DNA of 46,492 nucleotides from Bdellovibrionales bacterium (lineage in GTDB: Bacteria; Bdellovibrionota; Bdellovibrionia; Bdellovibrionales; JAEYZS01). Both the position numbers and the translations under genes were made by a program. How positions within the stretch are numbered: the first letter of the stretch is position 1; each line of letters starts with the position of its first letter. Below are positions 3,175-10,800 of the stretch, piece by piece. The stretch lies in the NCBI GenBank assembly GCA_031374125.1, contig JANMFM010000048.1:1-46492 (forward strand), written 5' to 3'. The notes below the pieces were generated by a model. It worked only from the letters and a program-made list of their open reading frames with translations, was not told where the DNA came from and ran no database searches.

Positions 3175-3411
3175 ATGTCTAACAAATCAGAAAAATGGAA
3201 AGAAAACAAACCAGGTAAGTTCTATGTGGATCAATCCTGCATATCTTGCGACGCTTGCGTTTGTGCAGCTCCTGATAACTTCACTATGAATGATGAAGAT
3301 GGGCACGCTTACATCACAAAACAGCCTGGGACAGCTCAAGAAGAAGAGGCTTGCAAAGAAGCAATGGAAGGTTGCCCGGTTGAGGCAATCGGAAACGATG
3401 GCGAAGAGTAA
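3175..3411 (+). CDS. small single-cluster ferredoxin
   Basis: The 78-aa product has C-I-S-C-D-A-C plus a distal C-P-V-E-A-I (CxxCxxC...CP), the pattern of a [3Fe-4S]/[4Fe-4S] ferredoxin. Confidence 0.75.
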   Translation: MSNKSEKWKENKPGKFYVDQSCISCDACVCAAPDNFTMNDEDGHAYITKQPGTAQEEEACKEAMEGCPVEAIGNDGEE

Positions 3412-4057
3412 AGAATCTTTCTCTGAAAAACACAAACGCGTTAAAAAAATCATCTCACTTCTAGCAAAAGAATATCCGGATGCACACTGTGCTCTTGATC
3501 ACGAAAGTGCGTTTCAACTTTTAGTAGCAACAATTTTGTCCGCGCAATGTACAGATGAACGTGTGAATAAAGTGACGCCGGCATTGTTCAAAAGATTTCC
3601 GACACCGCAAAGTTATTTGAAGGCAGATGTTTTGGAAATCGAAGAGTTTGTGCGTACGACTGGATTTTTCAAAAATAAAGCTAAGAATATCAAGGGTTGT
3701 GCAGAGCAATTGGTTGAAAAGCATAAAGGTGAGGTTCCACAAACTATGGAAGAGCTTCATGCGCTTCCAGGAGTGGGAAGGAAAACTGCCAATGTTGTAT
3801 TGGGAAATATTTTTGGAATTCCAGGAATGGTGGTCGATACGCACGTGACAAGACTTTCTAACCGCATGGGTTTTGTTAAAGGAACGGACGCCGTGAAACT
3901 GGAATTGGAACTTCAAAAATTAGTTCCCGAAAAAAACTGGACCATGTACTCACATTACTTGATTACCCACGGAAGAGCGATATGTACCGCAAGAAATCCT
4001 GACTGCAAAAATTGTTTTCTCAACAAAAATTGCCCGCAATTGCCCTATTCCAAGTAA
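3398..4057 (+). CDS. nth: endonuclease III (DNA-(apurinic/apyrimidinic site) lyase)
   Basis: It has the HhH-GPD motif LPGVGRKTANVVL followed by VVDTHV. The C-terminal Fe-S loop is C-x6-C-x2-C-x5-C (CTARNPDCKNCFLNKNC). I moved the start from 3290 to ATG 3398 (MAKSKESF...), giving 219 aa. The first 36 codons of the ORF-track version overlap the ferredoxin out of frame. Confidence 0.92.
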   Translation: MAKSKESFSEKHKRVKKIISLLAKEYPDAHCALDHESAFQLLVATILSAQCTDERVNKVTPALFKRFPTPQSYLKADVLEIEEFVRTTGFFKNKAKNIKGCAEQLVEKHKGEVPQTMEELHALPGVGRKTANVVLGNIFGIPGMVVDTHVTRLSNRMGFVKGTDAVKLELELQKLVPEKNWTMYSHYLITHGRAICTARNPDCKNCFLNKNCPQLPYSK

Positions 4058-4265
4058 CCCAATATTCTGTCAATATTGTAAACACTCGAGATGACAATTT
4101 GTCAGTTCAATGATCTTTTATATTTTTTAATGGCAAATCATTTTTATTAAAAAATATCAACAATATTAAATACTTATGATAGAAACGAGTAATTTCTAAG
4201 TACCTGATTTCCTTGGTATAAATATTGTAATTAAACATTACAGAATATTTTTTAGTGGAGATTTT

Positions 4266-4613
4266 ATGTTGTCTTCAAAGTCCAGAGTTATATCCCTGAC
4301 AGTTAGCCTATTGGTTGTAATGCAATTTACACCGGTACATGCCACCGATTTAACGTGCCGTGGTCTTTTTAAAGAAGCCTTATCAAGAGATAAAAAGAGT
4401 GAAGATGCAAATCCAATTTCTTCATTGATGGTCAAAAATTTAAAACTTAAACACAAACTACCTATCAGTGCTTATATCGAAATAATTGGTTATAAAAAAT
4501 TCTATGATAGTAATGGAGTAGAGGTAGGAGTTTCTACTTTATTCCAACCCATTCAACACAATATAAATAATTTAAAAGAAAGCCGCAGTGGATTAGATAA
4601 ATATCGCACATAA
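4266..4613 (+). CDS. exported hypothetical protein (signal peptide plus CxxLF tag); possibly the 5' part of a gene interrupted by an in-frame TAA
   Basis: GGAG lies 6 nt upstream of the ATG. The signal peptide ends ...TPVHA|TDLTCRGLF. The ORF ends at TAA 4611-4613, and the next ORF (4647) is in the same frame with no other stop between them. Confidence 0.55.
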   Translation: MLSSKSRVISLTVSLLVVMQFTPVHATDLTCRGLFKEALSRDKKSEDANPISSLMVKNLKLKHKLPISAYIEIIGYKKFYDSNGVEVGVSTLFQPIQHNINNLKESRSGLDKYRT

Positions 4614-4646
4614 ATTGACGAGCACAATTCAAAACTTTTTGAAAAA

Positions 4647-5579
4647 ATGGGATTTAAAGAATCAGAAGATCCAATTTTTGGAAAGTATATGTCAGAAGTT
4701 CCTAATCCCAAATTATTTGAATACTTAAGGGCGCAATACAACGCCCGCGTTCCAGCCGACATGCAAATAAATATGGGACTTTATCAATCTAAAGTAGTGT
4801 CTGCTCATCAAACGGAGTATGTTAAGCACTGGGTAAAAGATGGAACTATGGCTCTCAGCGATCCTAGATGGGGTTCGGTGTTTGGCTTGAAGCCCGAGCA
4901 ATTGTCAGAAAATATCACTGAAGGTAAAGAGAGAAATAGTCTTTACAGACATGATCTGGAGCACTTTGCTTCAATTTTTTTAATTCCTAAAAAAATTATT
5001 GATACAAACAGACAGATCGGAAGTTTTTGGGAAAAAGTACTTCGCCATATGCGTTCAGAGATTGCCAAAGGAAAAGTTTTAAAAGGTTCTCCGGAATGGC
5101 GTGCAATGATGGACGATGTTTATATTTATAATCGTCGCTTTCATAGTTTAACGCATTTAGTGGGTATATTGGTTCGCTCTAATGGATCTGTAGATGTGAA
5201 TAGCCAAGAGATAAAAGACTTTGGATTCGTCGCACGTGTAGAAACCCCAACGATTCACTGGGTAGGATTGGGTTATAAACCAAGCTGGGTAACTAAAGAC
5301 AGTTTGCCGTTTGAAAGCCGTTTATTGTCCTTAGGTTTAGAACAGTCTGTGGTTGCAAATAAAAATATCACCATAACAGATGCTTACGCAGCTGTGACTA
5401 ACGAAGGAATACAGCAAGCCATTCATTTTGTAAATAAACAGAAAAATACAAAATACAAAGCTATATATCAAAATTTTTTAGCGGAAACTAAAATCAATAA
5501 TGATTCTGAATTGAGGCCTGAAGAGCTTACAGAATTGGAACAACTAACTCTGCGCCGCTACCGCATAATGGGTAATTAA
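4647..5579 (+). CDS. hypothetical protein (no signal peptide, no recognisable domain); possibly the 3' part of the 4266 gene
   Basis: The 310-aa ORF is in the same frame as 4266..4613. It has no Shine-Dalgarno-like sequence upstream of its ATG. Only 4 nt separate it from the next gene. Confidence 0.5.
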   Translation: MGFKESEDPIFGKYMSEVPNPKLFEYLRAQYNARVPADMQINMGLYQSKVVSAHQTEYVKHWVKDGTMALSDPRWGSVFGLKPEQLSENITEGKERNSLYRHDLEHFASIFLIPKKIIDTNRQIGSFWEKVLRHMRSEIAKGKVLKGSPEWRAMMDDVYIYNRRFHSLTHLVGILVRSNGSVDVNSQEIKDFGFVARVETPTIHWVGLGYKPSWVTKDSLPFESRLLSLGLEQSVVANKNITITDAYAAVTNEGIQQAIHFVNKQKNTKYKAIYQNFLAETKINNDSELRPEELTELEQLTLRRYRIMGN

Positions 5580-5583
5580 ACTT

Positions 5584-6723
5584 ATGACCCTAAAATTTAA
5601 AATATTAATCTATATTTTAATATCTGCGATATCTCTGAATGTCCATGCGAAGTCTTTGTGTGCGAGTTTATTTGATGAAAACTTAGAGCAATATGTACGT
5701 GTTAGCCCAGAGGTATTGGCTCATCCTATAAAACTTCTATCTGACAATTACGATGCGCGTGAATTTGTTCAATCTAAATTTAAAATAATATTCAAAAATT
5801 TTTTTGCATCACAAATGATAGATGCCAAAATAGCGATTAATCTCTCCCCCAGAGGTACGCTGCATGTGGTTTCCAGGGGTTTAACGAAAATTCAACATGA
5901 TGAGCTAATGAAGTTTATAGAGAGAGAACAGATAGATCATCTTTTGGCGGGAATTCCCAATTTCCTTCGTAATAAATATTTTGAGGTTAAAATTGATAAA
6001 AAAGAAAATGGCCAACACACGGTCACCAGTGAAACAAAATTTTCTTGGCAATTGAGTTTTGCGGTTGATAGCCAATTGCGAAGCGGATTTGCAATAGAAA
6101 ATAATCCTGCCACGGATTTGAAGAGAATTCGTCCTTTTATTGAAAGGTCTTCTTTGTCTACATATCCTATTCGTACAGATTTATTGAGCCAAAGGCGAAG
6201 CCAAGATACTTTGGTAACGTGCGGATTGTCTTCCCTTGCCCAAGTTTTAAATGCGAAAGGGATTCCTGTGGGTGAAAGAGAGCTTTTGAGACTTACAGAA
6301 TCTTTAGGCATAAAAACGAAGGCCGACATTTTTGGTAATCACCCTGGCCTTGAATTATCACAACTTGCACAATTAATAACTCAATTAGGAAAGCGTTATA
6401 ATTTTACGGTTACGATGAGAAAAATGGAAGGTGAAGAGGATACTGCCAAATTTAATGAAATAGTGAGAAGAAGCAGTGAAGGCCTCGCTAAAGTGGATAT
6501 CATTCTAAACTATCATTCTCCTGAAATTGGAAGACCAGGGCATGGGCATTTTTCTCCCGTTGCCGGATTTGATATTAGAACCAATGAACTTTTGGTTAGT
6601 GAAACAAACCTGACTGCAAATCCTCCATTTTGGGTTGAACTGAGTGCCATGTTAAACGCTATGAAAGCATCGGCGCATAGTGCGGAGGGTCCGCGAGGTT
6701 ATATCGTAATTGAATGGAAATGA
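5584..6723 (+). CDS. exported two-domain protein: unknown N-terminal domain plus C-terminal phytochelatin-synthase-like (papain-fold gamma-glutamylcysteine peptidase) domain
   Basis: The signal peptide ends ...LNVHA|KSLCASLF. The C-terminal half aligns by eye to the PCS catalytic domain: TCGLSSLAQVLNAKG (Cys213) and GHGHFSPVAGFD...LLVSE...NPPFWVELSAMLNAM (His322, Glu340). The Cys-His spacing is 109 and the His-acid spacing is 18, against 106 and 18 for plant PCS1 Cys56/His162/Asp180 as I recall them. Confidence 0.7.
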   Translation: MTLKFKILIYILISAISLNVHAKSLCASLFDENLEQYVRVSPEVLAHPIKLLSDNYDAREFVQSKFKIIFKNFFASQMIDAKIAINLSPRGTLHVVSRGLTKIQHDELMKFIEREQIDHLLAGIPNFLRNKYFEVKIDKKENGQHTVTSETKFSWQLSFAVDSQLRSGFAIENNPATDLKRIRPFIERSSLSTYPIRTDLLSQRRSQDTLVTCGLSSLAQVLNAKGIPVGERELLRLTESLGIKTKADIFGNHPGLELSQLAQLITQLGKRYNFTVTMRKMEGEEDTAKFNEIVRRSSEGLAKVDIILNYHSPEIGRPGHGHFSPVAGFDIRTNELLVSETNLTANPPFWVELSAMLNAMKASAHSAEGPRGYIVIEWK

Positions 6724-6763
6724 GGAAATTTTTTGATTTTTTAATTTTTAACCGGGATTGATA

Positions 6764-8284
6764 ATGAAAATATTAAGAATTGTTTTTACATTTATTTTTA
6801 TATTGGGAATTAGCACTCCTTCTTTTGCTAATAATCTTTGTAGCAATTTATTTTCATTGAGCTATAGCCCCGCGTTTCCATCGGATGCAGCGACTGCAAG
6901 TAGGGTCCGCTTCGAAATCGAAAATGCAAAAAGAGCCTCTCGACTTTTCATGAAAGCTTTGAAAAGAAAATCAGATATTTTAAAAAGAAATTTTTATAAA
7001 AAAATAATAGATTTAGAAATGGTGTGTATTGGTGCGGGTCCACAATGTGCGTCGGCATCTTTGGTTTTGGGACGTGCCGGCAGAGCCGCCATTGTAATAG
7101 AAAAAACAGAACATATTGCTAAAACCTTTGCCGAAAAAGACTTTATCATCAACAGTGTAGAAACTGGAACTCTCAGTATGCATGAGTTTCCTGGAGGCGT
7201 TGGAAGTTTAGCGAATTACTCATCTTCGAAGTATGCGCATTCCTCCCAATTGGCTGCCTATATCCAGGGGCAGCAAAGCCATTCGAAAATCCCCGTTCTT
7301 CTGGGAACGACGGTGACTTCGATCAGAGAAATAAATATCGATGGCAAGACACTGGTTGAAATCAAAACAGATCAGAACATCACCTTCAGAACGCCTCGCT
7401 TAATATTAGGAACAGGTATAGGGGAAGTGGCTTCCAAAATTCCAGATAATAACTACGTGATGGAGTTCAATAAAAATCATTTGATGCATTTAGAAAATCC
7501 AGCAAAGATTTTGCCTATAATGTGCACGGATACGTTACTGGTCTCTCTGAAAATCAATGCCAAAAAGAATAAAACTGTAACTTTACCTAAAGAAGTGATC
7601 ATCATTGGTGACGGAGATGGCTCGAGAATTGCCGTTGAAGGATTGATCGACGCTCATGTTAACTTGCCTCAAGGTTTCAAATTAACTTGGGTTGGAAATG
7701 ACTTCCGTACGGCGGTAGAATATGTAGCAAGTCGTGGAGGCGGTGATCGTTATATTCATAAAATAGTTCCACTTTATGAAAATAATCAAATTGAAGGAAC
7801 AAATGGAAAGGCTGAAAAAGTGGACTTTCTGGAAAACGGCAGAATGCGCGTGACAGTCTACAATAAAGAAAAGAATACCAGAGTGACGGTAGAAGGTGAC
7901 ATGATCATTGATACCACGGGCGCGCAGAGTGTAAGTGGTATGCTTATCCAAAGTGCAGGCGAAGTAAGATTAGTTGATGTTAAAGGCGAGCTCAAAGAAA
8001 TGAATTTGGATTCGACAGTGCTCGGCAGGCAGTACGTTACGGAATTGGGACGTCCACTTCCGATTTATGCTGTAGGACCAACTGCAGGCGCATTGGCGAC
8101 AAAAGAAGAGTTGGTGAATTCGCAAAATCAAAACCCGGTAGCTATTTTCAATACGGTAGGAAGGACTTCGGCGCTGATTTCAAATTTATTAGGAGTTCCT
8201 CATCTTCCTAGCAATAGAGGTGCGCGCAAAGAGCGTCCACCAGTCCAAAATGCAGAGGATATCGTACGGCAAATCAATAAATAA
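6764..8284 (+). CDS. exported FAD/NAD(P)-binding oxidoreductase (two-dinucleotide-binding-domain flavoprotein; subfamily unresolved)
   Basis: The signal peptide ends ...TPSFA|NNLCSNLF. The first Rossmann motif is MVCIGAGPQCASASLVLG...IVIEK, the second is VIIIGDGDGSRIAVEGL, and a late motif is IYAVGPTAG. I placed the start at ATG 6764; TTG 6758 is also possible. Confidence 0.65.
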   Translation: MKILRIVFTFIFILGISTPSFANNLCSNLFSLSYSPAFPSDAATASRVRFEIENAKRASRLFMKALKRKSDILKRNFYKKIIDLEMVCIGAGPQCASASLVLGRAGRAAIVIEKTEHIAKTFAEKDFIINSVETGTLSMHEFPGGVGSLANYSSSKYAHSSQLAAYIQGQQSHSKIPVLLGTTVTSIREINIDGKTLVEIKTDQNITFRTPRLILGTGIGEVASKIPDNNYVMEFNKNHLMHLENPAKILPIMCTDTLLVSLKINAKKNKTVTLPKEVIIIGDGDGSRIAVEGLIDAHVNLPQGFKLTWVGNDFRTAVEYVASRGGGDRYIHKIVPLYENNQIEGTNGKAEKVDFLENGRMRVTVYNKEKNTRVTVEGDMIIDTTGAQSVSGMLIQSAGEVRLVDVKGELKEMNLDSTVLGRQYVTELGRPLPIYAVGPTAGALATKEELVNSQNQNPVAIFNTVGRTSALISNLLGVPHLPSNRGARKERPPVQNAEDIVRQINK

Positions 8285-8528
8285 AATTCATCAAGCGTGT
8301 ACATTTTACTTGGTTGTATAAAAGTGAGATGTAATAAAACAGTAGAGGGATAGTGATTTAGATTTCTTGATGAATTTTTTATTCATTCGCTAGCATTTTT
8401 TTACAAAAAAACCATTACATCTATTTTATTTAAGCACCCCCTGTTATATTGCATCGATATAAAAATCATTCGGTTTGATAATTTTGGAAATTAATCCAAC
8501 AAAATTTCGAGTGGTGTTGGTACAGGTT

Positions 8529-8681
8529 ATGTTCAAGAGTTTAACTGTAATTCTATTTTTTTTATCCCTTCAGTTTTGTTCCGAGGCTTCTTATGCTATG
8601 AGTTGCCAGGCTCTATTCTCAACAAATAACCCTACTGCAGAATTACCTAATGCTCTAAACTGTTCGATCTATGCAAAATAA
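8529..8681 (+). CDS. short ORF encoding only a signal peptide plus CxxLF tag; probably the detached 5' end of the next ORF
   Basis: The product is MFKSLTVILFFLSLQFCSEASYA|MSCQALFSTNNP..., with a stop after about 27 mature residues. It overlaps the 8671 ORF by 11 nt in a different frame. The start is taken at ATG 8529 rather than the ORF-track 8475. Confidence 0.4.
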   Translation: MFKSLTVILFFLSLQFCSEASYAMSCQALFSTNNPTAELPNALNCSIYAK

Positions 8682-9150
8682 ATTAGCTAGAATTTTAGAT
8701 TCTGCAATCACGGAAGGTATTGAAGCCATCCAAAAATACGATATAAGAAATGAAGCCATCTTGAGAACCATTGAGCTTTATAAATCAGGGTACTTACGAA
8801 AAGTTGATCATATATATTTATCAGATACCGAATTAAAAAATATTTTTGTACAACATGCGACGTTAGAATTAATGCTAGGGGAATTATTTTCTGCGTTATT
8901 CCCACAGTCTAATGTATTTAACAAAATTCAAATGATTATGTGGTACATCCCGATGCGGGAAAATCAAAGGTTTGATTTTTTATTAAGGGCTGTGACTTCG
9001 CAAGACCTTAATCTTCTTCCATACAGAGCGTCTATTAGAGAAACTCTAAACAACGGTTACATAGATCAGGTGATTAGCACAGATGAACATAGTCAGCTTA
9101 TTTATGCTTTAGAATCAAATGCACAAAGAATGTCAAATTTTGGAAATTAA
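8671..9150 (+). CDS. hypothetical protein (no signal peptide, no recognisable domain)
   Basis: The 159-aa ORF has no SD-like sequence ahead of its ATG, and that ATG lies inside the preceding short ORF. Confidence 0.5.
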   Translation: MQNKLARILDSAITEGIEAIQKYDIRNEAILRTIELYKSGYLRKVDHIYLSDTELKNIFVQHATLELMLGELFSALFPQSNVFNKIQMIMWYIPMRENQRFDFLLRAVTSQDLNLLPYRASIRETLNNGYIDQVISTDEHSQLIYALESNAQRMSNFGN

Positions 9151-9163
9151 TAATTTAAAAATC

Positions 9164-9185
9164 GCGCTTTAATGTAAAAAAGCGC
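9164..9185. terminator. hairpin between convergent genes (candidate terminator)
   Basis: GCGCTTT (9164-9170) pairs with AAAGCGC (9179-9185), giving a 7-bp stem and 8-nt loop. It has no strong T-tract. Confidence 0.35.
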
Positions 9186-9281
9186 TAATTCGCGCCGGAG
9201 AGTTCGTAACAACGGATTTTCTTAAAGCACTTCCCCAAATTTCGTTAACAAAATAACTAATTAAATATTTTTTTGATGATG

Positions 9282-10265
9282 TTATTTTTTTTCGGCGAGT
9301 TGTCGGGGACGGTCTTTGATTTCATAATTTATGAAAACATTGAGACCTTTCTCCATTTGACCGAAGTACACTGGAGCCATTTTGTAGTCGATGGTTGGAA
9401 GCTCAACAGTAATAGTTGGGATTCCTTTGTACCTGCCAGCGTAATTTCCTAAACTTCCAGGAAATGTTCCGTAAGCGTAGAAGTTTAAGCCCGTCGCAGA
9501 TTTATCGAGTTGTTGCCTTAGAAGATCACAAGACTTTACATAAGTTTCTGTAAATTTCTTTGCAGCTTCACTATCTATACCACTGAGAGGTCCATCAAAA
9601 TCCAAATGATTGAGAGGTGAGTGGACACTTAAGATTTTTGCTGGTTTAAATTCTTCGATAAGCCATTTTTGGAATTCTATTTCTGGCTCGGAGGCCGCTT
9701 TGTCGCCAGGGAAATAGCGTCTTTGAGAACCGTACTTTGTTTTCCAAATTTTTTGCGCTTGTTCGCCCCATTCAGGAGTGTCGAAGTTTCTATTGAGATC
9801 CACTTTATTATAGTTTGTTCTAGTTCCAGTAGTATACCTCAAGAATCCATCAGGATTCACAATTGGAGCGACAACTATAAAGGATTTTTCACAAAGCTCT
9901 GGTCTTGCCTTAAGCCATTCCACTACGCGAAAACCAAAATAAACAGGCGTAATTTCGTCGCCATGAACTGCGGACAGAATAAGCGAAGTATTTTCGTTCT
10001 CAGGCTTTCCGCAAGTCCAATAAACCAAGGGGCGTCCATAAACAGAATGCCCTTTTTCTCTCCATCCAGCTTTTGGGAAAAAGCTTAAATCCCAATTCCA
10101 TTTTTTACCCTCAATACGTCCTCTGATTTCTTCCATCATCTCTTCAGAAGAGACTTTTTTGGCCTGGAAAAAGTTAGGGGCAGTCGTCTTTTGCTCAGCG
10201 TAAAGATTGCTAGCATTTATCAATGTAAATGTTAATAATGTAGATATAATAAATGTGAATTTCAT
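9282..10265 (-). CDS. M14-family zinc carboxypeptidase (MpaA / murein-peptide amidase-like), exported
   Basis: It has the zinc-binding motif SAVHGDE, then PIVNPDG and VDLNRNF. The signal peptide is MKFTFIISTLLTFTLINASNLYA. I moved the start from 10343 to ATG 10265. Confidence 0.8.
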   Translation of the reverse strand: MKFTFIISTLLTFTLINASNLYAEQKTTAPNFFQAKKVSSEEMMEEIRGRIEGKKWNWDLSFFPKAGWREKGHSVYGRPLVYWTCGKPENENTSLILSAVHGDEITPVYFGFRVVEWLKARPELCEKSFIVVAPIVNPDGFLRYTTGTRTNYNKVDLNRNFDTPEWGEQAQKIWKTKYGSQRRYFPGDKAASEPEIEFQKWLIEEFKPAKILSVHSPLNHLDFDGPLSGIDSEAAKKFTETYVKSCDLLRQQLDKSATGLNFYAYGTFPGSLGNYAGRYKGIPTITVELPTIDYKMAPVYFGQMEKGLNVFINYEIKDRPRQLAEKK

Positions 10266-10317
10266 AGGCATCTCTAAATTTGACATGTCTAGAGTCATAC
10301 TTGCAAGGATTTTAAAT

Positions 10318-10800
10318 ATGTTTACGGCATTTTTTGAGAGCATAAAATATGTAGGACATTTGTATCCTGTTGCTTTCTTAAGAATTTTTTTAGGTTACTA
10401 TTGGCTTAACCAGGCATTAACAGAATATCAAACTGGACTTTTTACCTCGCAAGTATTCATCGACCAGGTCCAATCTTCAGATTATGTCTATAGTTTTCCG
10501 ACATGGTACAAATGGCTATTTGAGCATCTTGCTTATCCATACTGGTCGATGATGAGCCATGGCATTTTAACCGTGAGCTTCCTCGTAGGCCTTTCGTTAC
10601 TCATTGGATTTATGGTAAGGCCGTTTGGAATCATAGGAATTTTAATTTCATTTCATTATGTGATTTTTGGAGTAGGGTATCAGAACTTATTGTATTCAAC
10701 GTTTGTCGCAATATTTGTAACCATCGTGGCAATTGGAGCCGGTCGCTGCGTTGGCTTTGATTACTATTTCTACAAAAGGAATCGCGGCATTTGGTGGTAG
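10318..10800 (+). CDS. DoxX-family integral membrane protein
   Basis: It has four hydrophobic segments and the C-terminal motif AIGAGRCVGFD typical of DoxX/DoxD-like proteins. The start could be ATG 10318 or 10285. The ORF-track start at 10207 overlaps the divergent peptidase gene. Confidence 0.6.
   Translation: MFTAFFESIKYVGHLYPVAFLRIFLGYYWLNQALTEYQTGLFTSQVFIDQVQSSDYVYSFPTWYKWLFEHLAYPYWSMMSHGILTVSFLVGLSLLIGFMVRPFGIIGILISFHYVIFGVGYQNLLYSTFVAIFVTIVAIGAGRCVGFDYYFYKRNRGIWW

Follow-up and report, generated by a model that had tools for sequence, protein, structure and literature searches.

A shared cysteine-containing N-terminal motif in a putative cluster of exported proteins around a phytochelatin-synthase-like enzyme of a Bdellovibrionales bacterium

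The 46,492-nucleotide stretch of DNA analysed here (contig JANMFM010000048.1 of the Bdellovibrionales bacterium assembly GCA_031374125.1, positions 1 to 46,492 of the forward strand; referred to as the window) harbours, between the housekeeping gene nth and a convergent gene for an M14 peptidase, four co-oriented genes whose products are each predicted to carry a Sec-type signal peptide followed by the same short cysteine-containing motif (here termed the tag). The tag is the most solid and least expected part of the observation. The four genes, numbered 1 to 4, code for a member of an orphan family, a phytochelatin-synthase-like (PCS-like) protein, a flavoprotein and a further orphan protein. 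The explanation favoured here, which we consider about evenly balanced between being right and being wrong, is that the interval represents an accessory cluster of tagged, exported enzymes with gene 1 and the PCS-like gene at its core. Judged from the sequence, genes 1 and 2 are the conserved core and are probably translationally coupled; the flavoprotein gene is an add-on in the lineage of the window and in one other. The genes and their tags are:

4266–5579, + strand: gene 1, a single orphan-family gene of 437 codons with an in-frame TAA interruption
4347–4370, + strand: tag of gene 1, DLTCRGLF, predicted cleavage site VHA|T (VHA|TDLTCRGLF)
5584–6723, + strand: gene 2, 379-residue predicted exported two-domain protein, starting 4 nt past gene 1
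5650–5673, + strand: tag of gene 2, KSLCASLF, predicted cleavage site VHA|K
6764–8284, + strand: gene 3, 506-residue predicted exported flavoprotein of a Bdellovibrionota-specific family
6827–6853, + strand: tag of gene 3, ANNLCSNLF, predicted cleavage site SFA|N (SFA|NNLCSNLF)
8529–9150, + strand: gene 4, orphan, composed of ORFs 8529–8681 and 8671–9150 (159 codons) in different frames with an 11-nt overlap
about 8598–8615, + strand: tag of gene 4, SCQALF (SYA|MSCQALF)

Six separate open reading frames (ORFs) had been listed for this interval in the original prediction. All of them are present on the + strand, as is every sizeable ORF between nth and the M14 gene; they amount, however, to four genes instead of six, two of which (genes 1 and 4) are damaged.

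Across three unrelated protein families, the tag consists of a signal peptidase I site, two to six residues and then Cys-x-x-hydrophobic-Phe. In all four genes of the interval, the encoded N-terminus is positively charged and leads into a hydrophobic core and then an AxA-like site, which is followed after 2–4 residues by C-x-x-L-F (CRGLF, CASLF, CSNLF and CQALF in genes 1 to 4, respectively), which bears out the earlier report of four N-termini with a predicted Sec signal and a common Cys tag. The pattern C-x-x-L-F behind a signal peptide occurs in 4 of the 32 signal-peptide-like ORFs of the window, all of them located in this cluster, as compared to an expectation of 0.30 from shuffling (P(>=4) = 1.5e-4). 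The tag cysteine is invariant in eight aligned PCS-like proteins and also present in the copies at loci L013 and L026, is found in every gene-1 ortholog that has its N-terminus, and, with a single exception, is retained by the flavoprotein orthologs with an N-terminus, down to 34–40% identity and with freely varying flanking residues. In total, more than 40 sequences of unrelated folds share this conserved residue. Within 35 tagged N-termini, the position three residues past the cysteine is occupied by L, V or I in 28 cases and the following one by F in 25, and the cysteine is located 3–7 residues from the predicted mature N-terminus. The tag lies in a segment of both AlphaFold models with a predicted local distance difference test score (pLDDT) below 50 (residues 12–35 in gene 3), and its position in such a disordered leader fits a linear motif. 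In gene 1, the tag cysteine is the sole cysteine of the mature protein.

Established categories of N-terminal signals were not found to accommodate the tag. A lipoprotein signal was rejected, since the residue preceding the cysteine is S, L, T, R, K, N etc. in the 35 tagged N-termini and no lipobox is present before the cysteine, and export via the Tat pathway was rejected for lack of a twin-arginine motif. An intramolecular disulfide latch between the tag cysteine and a catalytic cysteine is ruled out as a general mechanism, because gene 1 and other tagged proteins possess no second cysteine. The tag was also rejected as a general, proteome-wide signal, the evidence outside the three families being weak. 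Neither Pfam and NCBIfam nor the literature searched contained a description of the motif, and literature searches on a Bdellovibrio Cys tag or a Bdellovibrio phytochelatin synthase retrieved nothing relevant.

Three further, mutually unrelated proteins with a comparable N-terminus were noted in other loci, namely an M43-like protease with the motif HEIGHxxxxxH (L012, 13352–14566, − strand; the same protein in L020) with a signal peptide and CSIYY, a 146-residue protein (L016, 6244–6684, − strand) with a signal peptide and CISLF, and a 141-residue protein (L002, 8554–8979, + strand) with a signal peptide and CSEIL. A gene for a tagged flavoprotein or PCS-like protein is located 1–3.5 kb from each of them.

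Comparison of gene neighbourhoods revealed gene 1 and the PCS-like gene to be immediate neighbours, either overlapping or 4 nt apart, in the window and a sister metagenome-assembled genome (MAG), in L001 and in L013; this coupling is hence kept in three independent lineages at about 40–47% identity. In L013, the flavoprotein gene precedes gene 1 and the PCS-like gene with gaps of 17–46 nt, all three products are tagged, and protein identity is about 45%. The three genes occur together only in the window and in L013, and their recurrence at this level of identity in a different order argues for some functional link in the two lineages. Synteny of the PCS-like and flavoprotein genes, which the original prediction had put forward as a point to be examined, therefore recurs in L013 but is not general: the PCS-like gene is found without the flavoprotein gene in five of seven contexts, including L002, L004, L006 and L026 where it lacks either partner, and at all remaining distinct flavoprotein loci examined (about 12, including that of B. 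bacteriovorus), the flavoprotein gene has neither of the two as a neighbour.

The contig of the sister MAG (GCA_040384145.1, JAWVHD010001103.1; L027) is 97% identical to the window over positions 3201–8399. Ratios of nonsynonymous to synonymous substitution (dN/dS) between the two amount to 0.30 (gene 1), 0.27 (PCS-like gene) and 0.23 (flavoprotein gene), as compared to 0.12 in nth, and genes 1–3 are by this measure under purifying selection.

The interruption of gene 1 is confined to a single position:

4611–4613, + strand: nonsense codon TAA in gene 1, GAA in the sister MAG and Glu in all orthologs

ORFs 4266–4613 and 4647–5579 share the same frame and are separated by the TAA plus 11 sense codons. 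Once merged, the 437 residues can be aligned over their full length with the intact 419-residue gene product of L001 (47% identity, E 6e-148); the orthologs P0030, P0031 and P0032 align as well and have, like L001, Glu at the stop position. The break thus corresponds to a single GAA>TAA change which the sister MAG and the four orthologs read through, and the intact frame of the orthologs together with the GAA of the 97%-identical sister indicates that the TAA either arose recently or results from a base-calling error. A decay of gene 1 throughout the lineage was considered and rejected, since the sister copy is annotated as partial solely through a scaffold gap of 10 N. The gene 1 family comprises five to six members and has the conserved motifs YRHDLEHF and RRFHSLTH. 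No match was obtained in Pfam, in NCBIfam or in the PDB profile search, and Foldseek with the AlphaFold model (pLDDT 68) did not retrieve a match from PDB or BFVD. On the P0032 contig (JGI 3300071358), the gene-1 homolog is without a PCS-like neighbour and is flanked by genes for a glutathione S-transferase and a glutathione-dependent formaldehyde-activating (GFA) protein.

The PCS-like domain recognized in the original prediction is well borne out. Family PF05023 (Phytochelatin) matches residues 198–373 of gene 2 with profile positions 35–210 of 210 (E 2e-21, 76.6 bits, cut-off 24.9), phmmer relates the protein to the structures of Nostoc Alr0975/NsPCS (E 5e-9), and the copy in the sister MAG was named "phytochelatin synthase family protein" by PGAP. 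The papain-like catalytic domain is preceded by an extra, unassigned N-terminal domain of about 170 residues (residues ~27–195), and its catalytic core is intact:

6175–6702, + strand: PCS-like catalytic domain, residues 198–373, PF05023
6202–6222, + strand: Gln207 and Cys213, oxyanion Gln and catalytic Cys, six residues apart
6547–6549, + strand: His322, in the GHFSP motif
6601–6603, + strand: Glu340, occupying the Asp position of the triad

Gln207, Cys213, His322 and Arg371 are invariant in eight aligned homologs, and the first three align to Gln64, Cys70 and His183 of NsPCS. The third triad position (Asp180 in AtPCS1, Asp201 in NsPCS) is Glu340 in the window, Glu in the five closest homologs and Asp in two distant ones, an acidic residue being retained throughout, and a PPFWV motif aligns to catalytic elements of NsPCS and AtPCS1. 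Arg371 is aligned with Arg232 of NsPCS, which we take to be a binder of the gamma-Glu carboxylate. Residues around the second substrate are different: Arg152, Arg183, Phe184, Lys185 and Tyr186 of AtPCS1 correspond to Ser312, Leu343, Thr344, Ala345 and Asn346 of gene 2, and Gln157 to Arg317. Mutagenesis of AtPCS1 demonstrated Arg152, Phe184, Lys185 and Tyr186 to shape the second-substrate (acceptor) site needed for phytochelatin synthesis (PMC3855540). With these residues replaced, the acceptor cavity is not conserved in gene 2, and because of this loss the protein looks like a PCS-fold hydrolase with an intact catalytic core and not like a phytochelatin synthase, as far as sequence allows such an assignment. 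The subfamily is very rare, with 8 matches among 5.8 billion clusters; patterns taken from the PCS alignment detected no locus in a scan of 185,579 GTDB species representatives, and a metagenome scan for the PCS-like gene yielded one further locus.

The two-Rossmann flavoprotein of the original prediction is likewise supported by motifs and by a confident AlphaFold model of gene 3 (pLDDT 85.9, predicted template modelling score 0.81):

7025–7048, + strand: FAD P-loop CIGAGPQC, with GAGPQC representing residues 90–95
about 7604–7624, + strand: second dinucleotide motif IGDGDGS, with GDGDGS representing residues 282–287

Gene 3 is not an orphan and belongs to a conserved family of about 20 homologs, all from Bdellovibrionota and including one of B. 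bacteriovorus HD100 (CAE80621.1 / Q6MJD9). An alignment of 19 sequences of the family conserves LCxGAGPQCAxxSL and IGxGDGSRI; no CxxC is present in them, and the only invariant cysteines are C88 and C95, both located in the FAD P-loop. Searches against PDB by sequence and by profile gave nothing significant, and the match to Pfam Pyr_redox_3 (28.4 bits) remained just under the cut-off of 30. The fold comparison proposed earlier was informative for the flavoprotein, which matches two-dinucleotide-binding folds, but, as described above, not for gene 1. Foldseek related the gene 3 model with E ~1e-13 to DesB, DfoA, PvdA, YpdA and TrxR-like FNRs, at 12–17% identity and template modelling scores (TM-scores) of 0.53–0.71 on the target (0.71 for YpdA). 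Its nearest folds are thus N-hydroxylases as much as thiol reductases; since K_oxygenase was not matched in Pfam, the likeness to N-hydroxylating monooxygenases is one of fold level only. The P-loop cysteine of YpdA is buried and probably structural, and the P-loop cysteines of gene 3 are therefore no sign of thiol chemistry. The signal peptide is predicted to be of the Sec and not of the Tat type in all orthologs, no RR motif being present in that of the window flavoprotein or of its orthologs. FAD and NAD(P)H are cytoplasmic, which renders a Sec-type signal on this protein unusual.

Gene 4 is a decaying orphan. Its second ORF, 8671, is without a Shine-Dalgarno sequence and has a stop four codons upstream in its own frame, so that one frameshifted gene is the simplest and most likely reading of the two ORFs. 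An exhaustive phmmer search of ORF 8671 against 1.84 billion representatives retrieved a 71-residue fragment as the sole relative, which is what is left of gene 4 in the sister MAG, preceded there by a stop. Window positions 8400–8898 are missing from the sister MAG (499-bp indel), and with them half of gene 4. Identity between the two, 97% up to position 8399, amounts past the indel to 85.7% over the remainder of gene 4 and over the M14 gene (window 8400–10400 versus L027 7636–9125), and this drop suggests recombination or a hypervariable boundary. Gene 4 is bracketed by an exact 16-nt direct repeat, AATTTTGGAAATTAAT, at 8480–8495 and 9136–9151, one copy being situated 34 nt upstream of the start at 8529 and the other over the last codons and the stop of the gene; the repeat could be the mark of a small inserted or recombining unit.

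The tight spacing and co-orientation described in the original prediction were confirmed, with intergenic gaps of 4 nt (5580–5583) and 40 nt (6724–6763), and so were the AT-rich spacers at 4058–4265 (23.6% GC) and 8285–8528 (29.1% GC; window mean 38.5%). Features surrounding the genes are:

ending at 4057, + strand: nth, housekeeping gene 5' of the cluster
4058–4265, + strand: AT-rich upstream spacer, presumably the promoter/5' region, with GGAG 9–12 nt ahead of the start codon (ATG, 4266)
8285–8528, + strand: AT-rich spacer preceding gene 4
9164–9185, no strand assigned: GC-rich hairpin with T runs between gene 4 and the convergent M14 gene, terminator-like
9282–10343, − strand: M14 peptidase gene, convergent with gene 4, product predicted to be exported

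A promoter/terminator scan gave no promoter signal exceeding the shuffle background, and Rfam, tRNA and repeat scans detected no RNA element. GC content at third codon positions (GC3) is 0.28–0.36 in the cluster genes versus 0.42 in nth. The best NCBIfam match of the M14 product is the murein tripeptide amidase MpaA (E 2e-25, under the cut-off). In the other PCS loci, no M14 gene adjoins the PCS-like gene; a single one was encountered, in L004, about 10 kb away. The remaining genes of the window code for an enoyl-CoA hydratase, a GNAT protein, an ABC importer, adenosine deaminase, a split transketolase, a DEAD helicase, a poly(A)/CCA polymerase and PqiA/MlaD, i.e. overall for ordinary chromosomal housekeeping functions. 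Proteins with at least 90% identity to the transketolase and nth products of the window are encoded in a MAG labelled Bdellovibrionota. Upstream of the interval, a 78-residue ORF (3175–3411, + strand), whose cysteines are arranged as in ferredoxins (CISCDACVC...CP), overlaps the extended 5' part of the long nth ORF (3290–4057, + strand). The start of nth is likely downstream of 3290, near 3398, because PGAP calls an nth of 219 residues in the sister MAG.

If the interval is indeed an accessory cluster of tagged enzymes, each protein would, as predicted from its sequence, be exported via Sec and then be cut by signal peptidase I. The cut would leave a flexible leader with a single cysteine followed by x-x-hydrophobic-Phe, as the sequences and the low model confidence of this segment show. 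The leader might provide for a common handling after export, either through a covalent tether, such as a disulfide, or through recognition in sorting. The PCS-like domain would act as a Cys-His-Glu acyl-enzyme hydrolase on a small peptide, for which a gamma-glutamyl peptide such as glutathione is, by homology only, the leading candidate.

Several points weigh against such a cluster. The Sec-type signal on a protein with FAD and probably NAD(P)H as cofactors is hard to square with activity in the predator's own periplasm, and with disruptions in two of its four genes, the cluster may be non-functional in this genome. Signal peptides were judged by eye and with a simple hydrophobicity rule, not with SignalP. 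Outside the three families, a loose form of the tag pattern was matched 3 times among 144 signal-peptide-like ORFs, versus about 1 expected (a fourth match, in L026, is a PCS-like copy and was not counted as non-family); with this little enrichment, the tag may be special to the three families and not a general sorting signal. Finally, the flavoprotein ortholog of L016 (at ~10001, Bdellovibrionaceae JADJYV010000013.1) has Arg in place of the tag cysteine, with APRREAVF versus APRCDSIF in relatives.

The original prediction had proposed a more specific function, namely a secreted, possibly prey-directed module attacking glutathione and thiols. As spelled out here, the PCS-like enzyme of such a module would cleave Gly from glutathione, the flavoprotein would oxidize or reduce the resulting thiols or disulfides and gene 1 would assist. 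The proteins would in this case work inside the prey, with access to glutathione, FAD and NAD(P)H, and the Sec signal would be sensible if the flavoenzyme folded with its cofactors only there. The predicted export signals, the intact PCS catalytic core and the FAD/NAD(P)-type motifs of this proposal stand, and deglycylation of glutathione at high rate has been reported for NsPCS of Nostoc (PMC3855540). The flavoprotein gene furthermore adjoins the gene 1–PCS pair in two distant lineages in different order and with short gaps, YpdA, a low-molecular-weight thiol disulfide reductase, is among the nearest folds (TM-score 0.71), and a gene-1 homolog is elsewhere located between glutathione S-transferase and GFA genes. 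However, the acceptor residues and others near the PCS active site differ from those of canonical enzymes, and the flavoprotein has no CxxC, has a P-loop Cys whose counterpart in YpdA is buried and non-catalytic, and matches the fold of N-hydroxylating monooxygenases equally well. The dissociation of the genes described above, with flavoprotein genes lacking both partners in about 12 other loci and PCS-like genes lacking the flavoprotein in most contexts, and the lack of a known route into prey for the cluster proteins likewise argue against the proposal, and we regard a glutathione-attacking function as an unlikely hypothesis with modest support.

A similarly small chance is given to the view that the interval is no functional unit at all and merely a variable spot where unrelated, fast-evolving genes for secreted proteins gather and decay, the Cys motif then reflecting a common biophysical need (e.g. 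DsbA-dependent dimerisation or folding) and not a shared handling. Such a spot would agree with the disruption of two of the four genes in the window, with the half-deleted gene 4 of the sister MAG and the fall in identity from 97% to 85.7% across this gene, with the low GC3 of the cluster relative to nth and with the many unrelated contexts of the flavoprotein gene. It does not account for the coupling of gene 1 with the PCS-like gene in three lineages at about 40–47% identity, for the adjacency of the flavoprotein gene that recurs in rearranged order, for the purifying selection on genes 1–3, or for the conservation of the tag cysteine in more than 40 sequences of unrelated folds.

A trimming of prey or self murein peptides (gamma-glutamyl-X unit) by the PCS-like enzyme alongside the MpaA-like M14 amidase appears very improbable: it could draw on the formal analogy of gamma-D-Glu-mDAP|D-Ala to gamma-Glu-Cys|Gly, on the adjacent, convergent gene for an exported M14 peptidase with its sub-threshold match to MpaA, on acceptor and substrate loops that differ from those of glutathione-using enzymes and on the secreted wall-modifying enzymes typical of Bdellovibrio, but it is pure analogy, peptidoglycan is not a known substrate of any PCS-family enzyme, the M14 gene adjoins no other PCS-like gene, and the flavoprotein would be left unexplained.

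The favoured accessory cluster of tagged enzymes may be extended by the bolder, and in our estimate rather doubtful, proposal that the tag serves Bdellovibrionota as an address or tether signal that acts after Sec export and has not been described before, in which a free cysteine in a disordered leader would route or hold a few predator enzymes, possibly for delivery to prey, with gene 1, the PCS-like protein and the flavoprotein as one cargo group acting on prey thiols. To our knowledge, it is not settled how Bdellovibrio-type predators sort exported enzymes between their own envelope and the prey, and a Cys-containing leader common to unrelated exported enzymes would provide a concrete handle on this sorting. 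The tag is amenable to study in B. bacteriovorus, where the flavoprotein Q6MJD9 bears it. The PCS-like gene represents a rare, divergent branch of the phytochelatin synthase fold without acceptor site and could reveal the role of this fold in bacteria that make no phytochelatins. Should the tag prove to be a peculiarity of these families and the enzymes to be ordinary ones, the locus would amount to a minor accessory cluster in an uncultured lineage.

Among known systems, the tag resembles the bacterial lipoprotein signal (L-[AS]-[GA]-C, processed by signal peptidase II) in that a cysteine follows soon after an N-terminal signal peptide. It differs from the lipobox by the charged residues common between its hydrophobic core and the cysteine and by a separate AxA-type signal peptidase I site 2–6 residues upstream; ordinary lipoboxes are present in other genes of the tagged loci. 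Gene 2 shares with NsPCS (Alr0975; PDB 2BTW/2BU3, 6TH5) the fold family of PF05023 papain-like Cys peptidases, the oxyanion Gln, the His of the GHxSP motif, the PPxWV motif and the C-terminal Arg-Gly, and possesses, like this half-size enzyme, the N-terminal catalytic half only and no plant-type C-terminal domain. Unlike NsPCS, it has Glu for the triad Asp, altered acceptor residues, an extra domain of about 170 residues and the Cys tag. Gene 3 has the two-Rossmann fold with a GxGxxG-type FAD motif and a second dinucleotide motif in common with SsDesB (6XBB), DfoA (5O8R), PvdA (3S5W) and YpdA/Bdr (7A7B), and a Cys in the FAD P-loop in common with YpdA (G10GGPC14G), whose Cys14 is buried, non-catalytic and about 8 A away from the flavin. 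It is ~100–180 residues longer than YpdA and has a long N-terminal helix, and, in contrast to the cytoplasmic N-hydroxylases and YpdA, it carries a Sec signal peptide together with the tag and is restricted to Bdellovibrionota.

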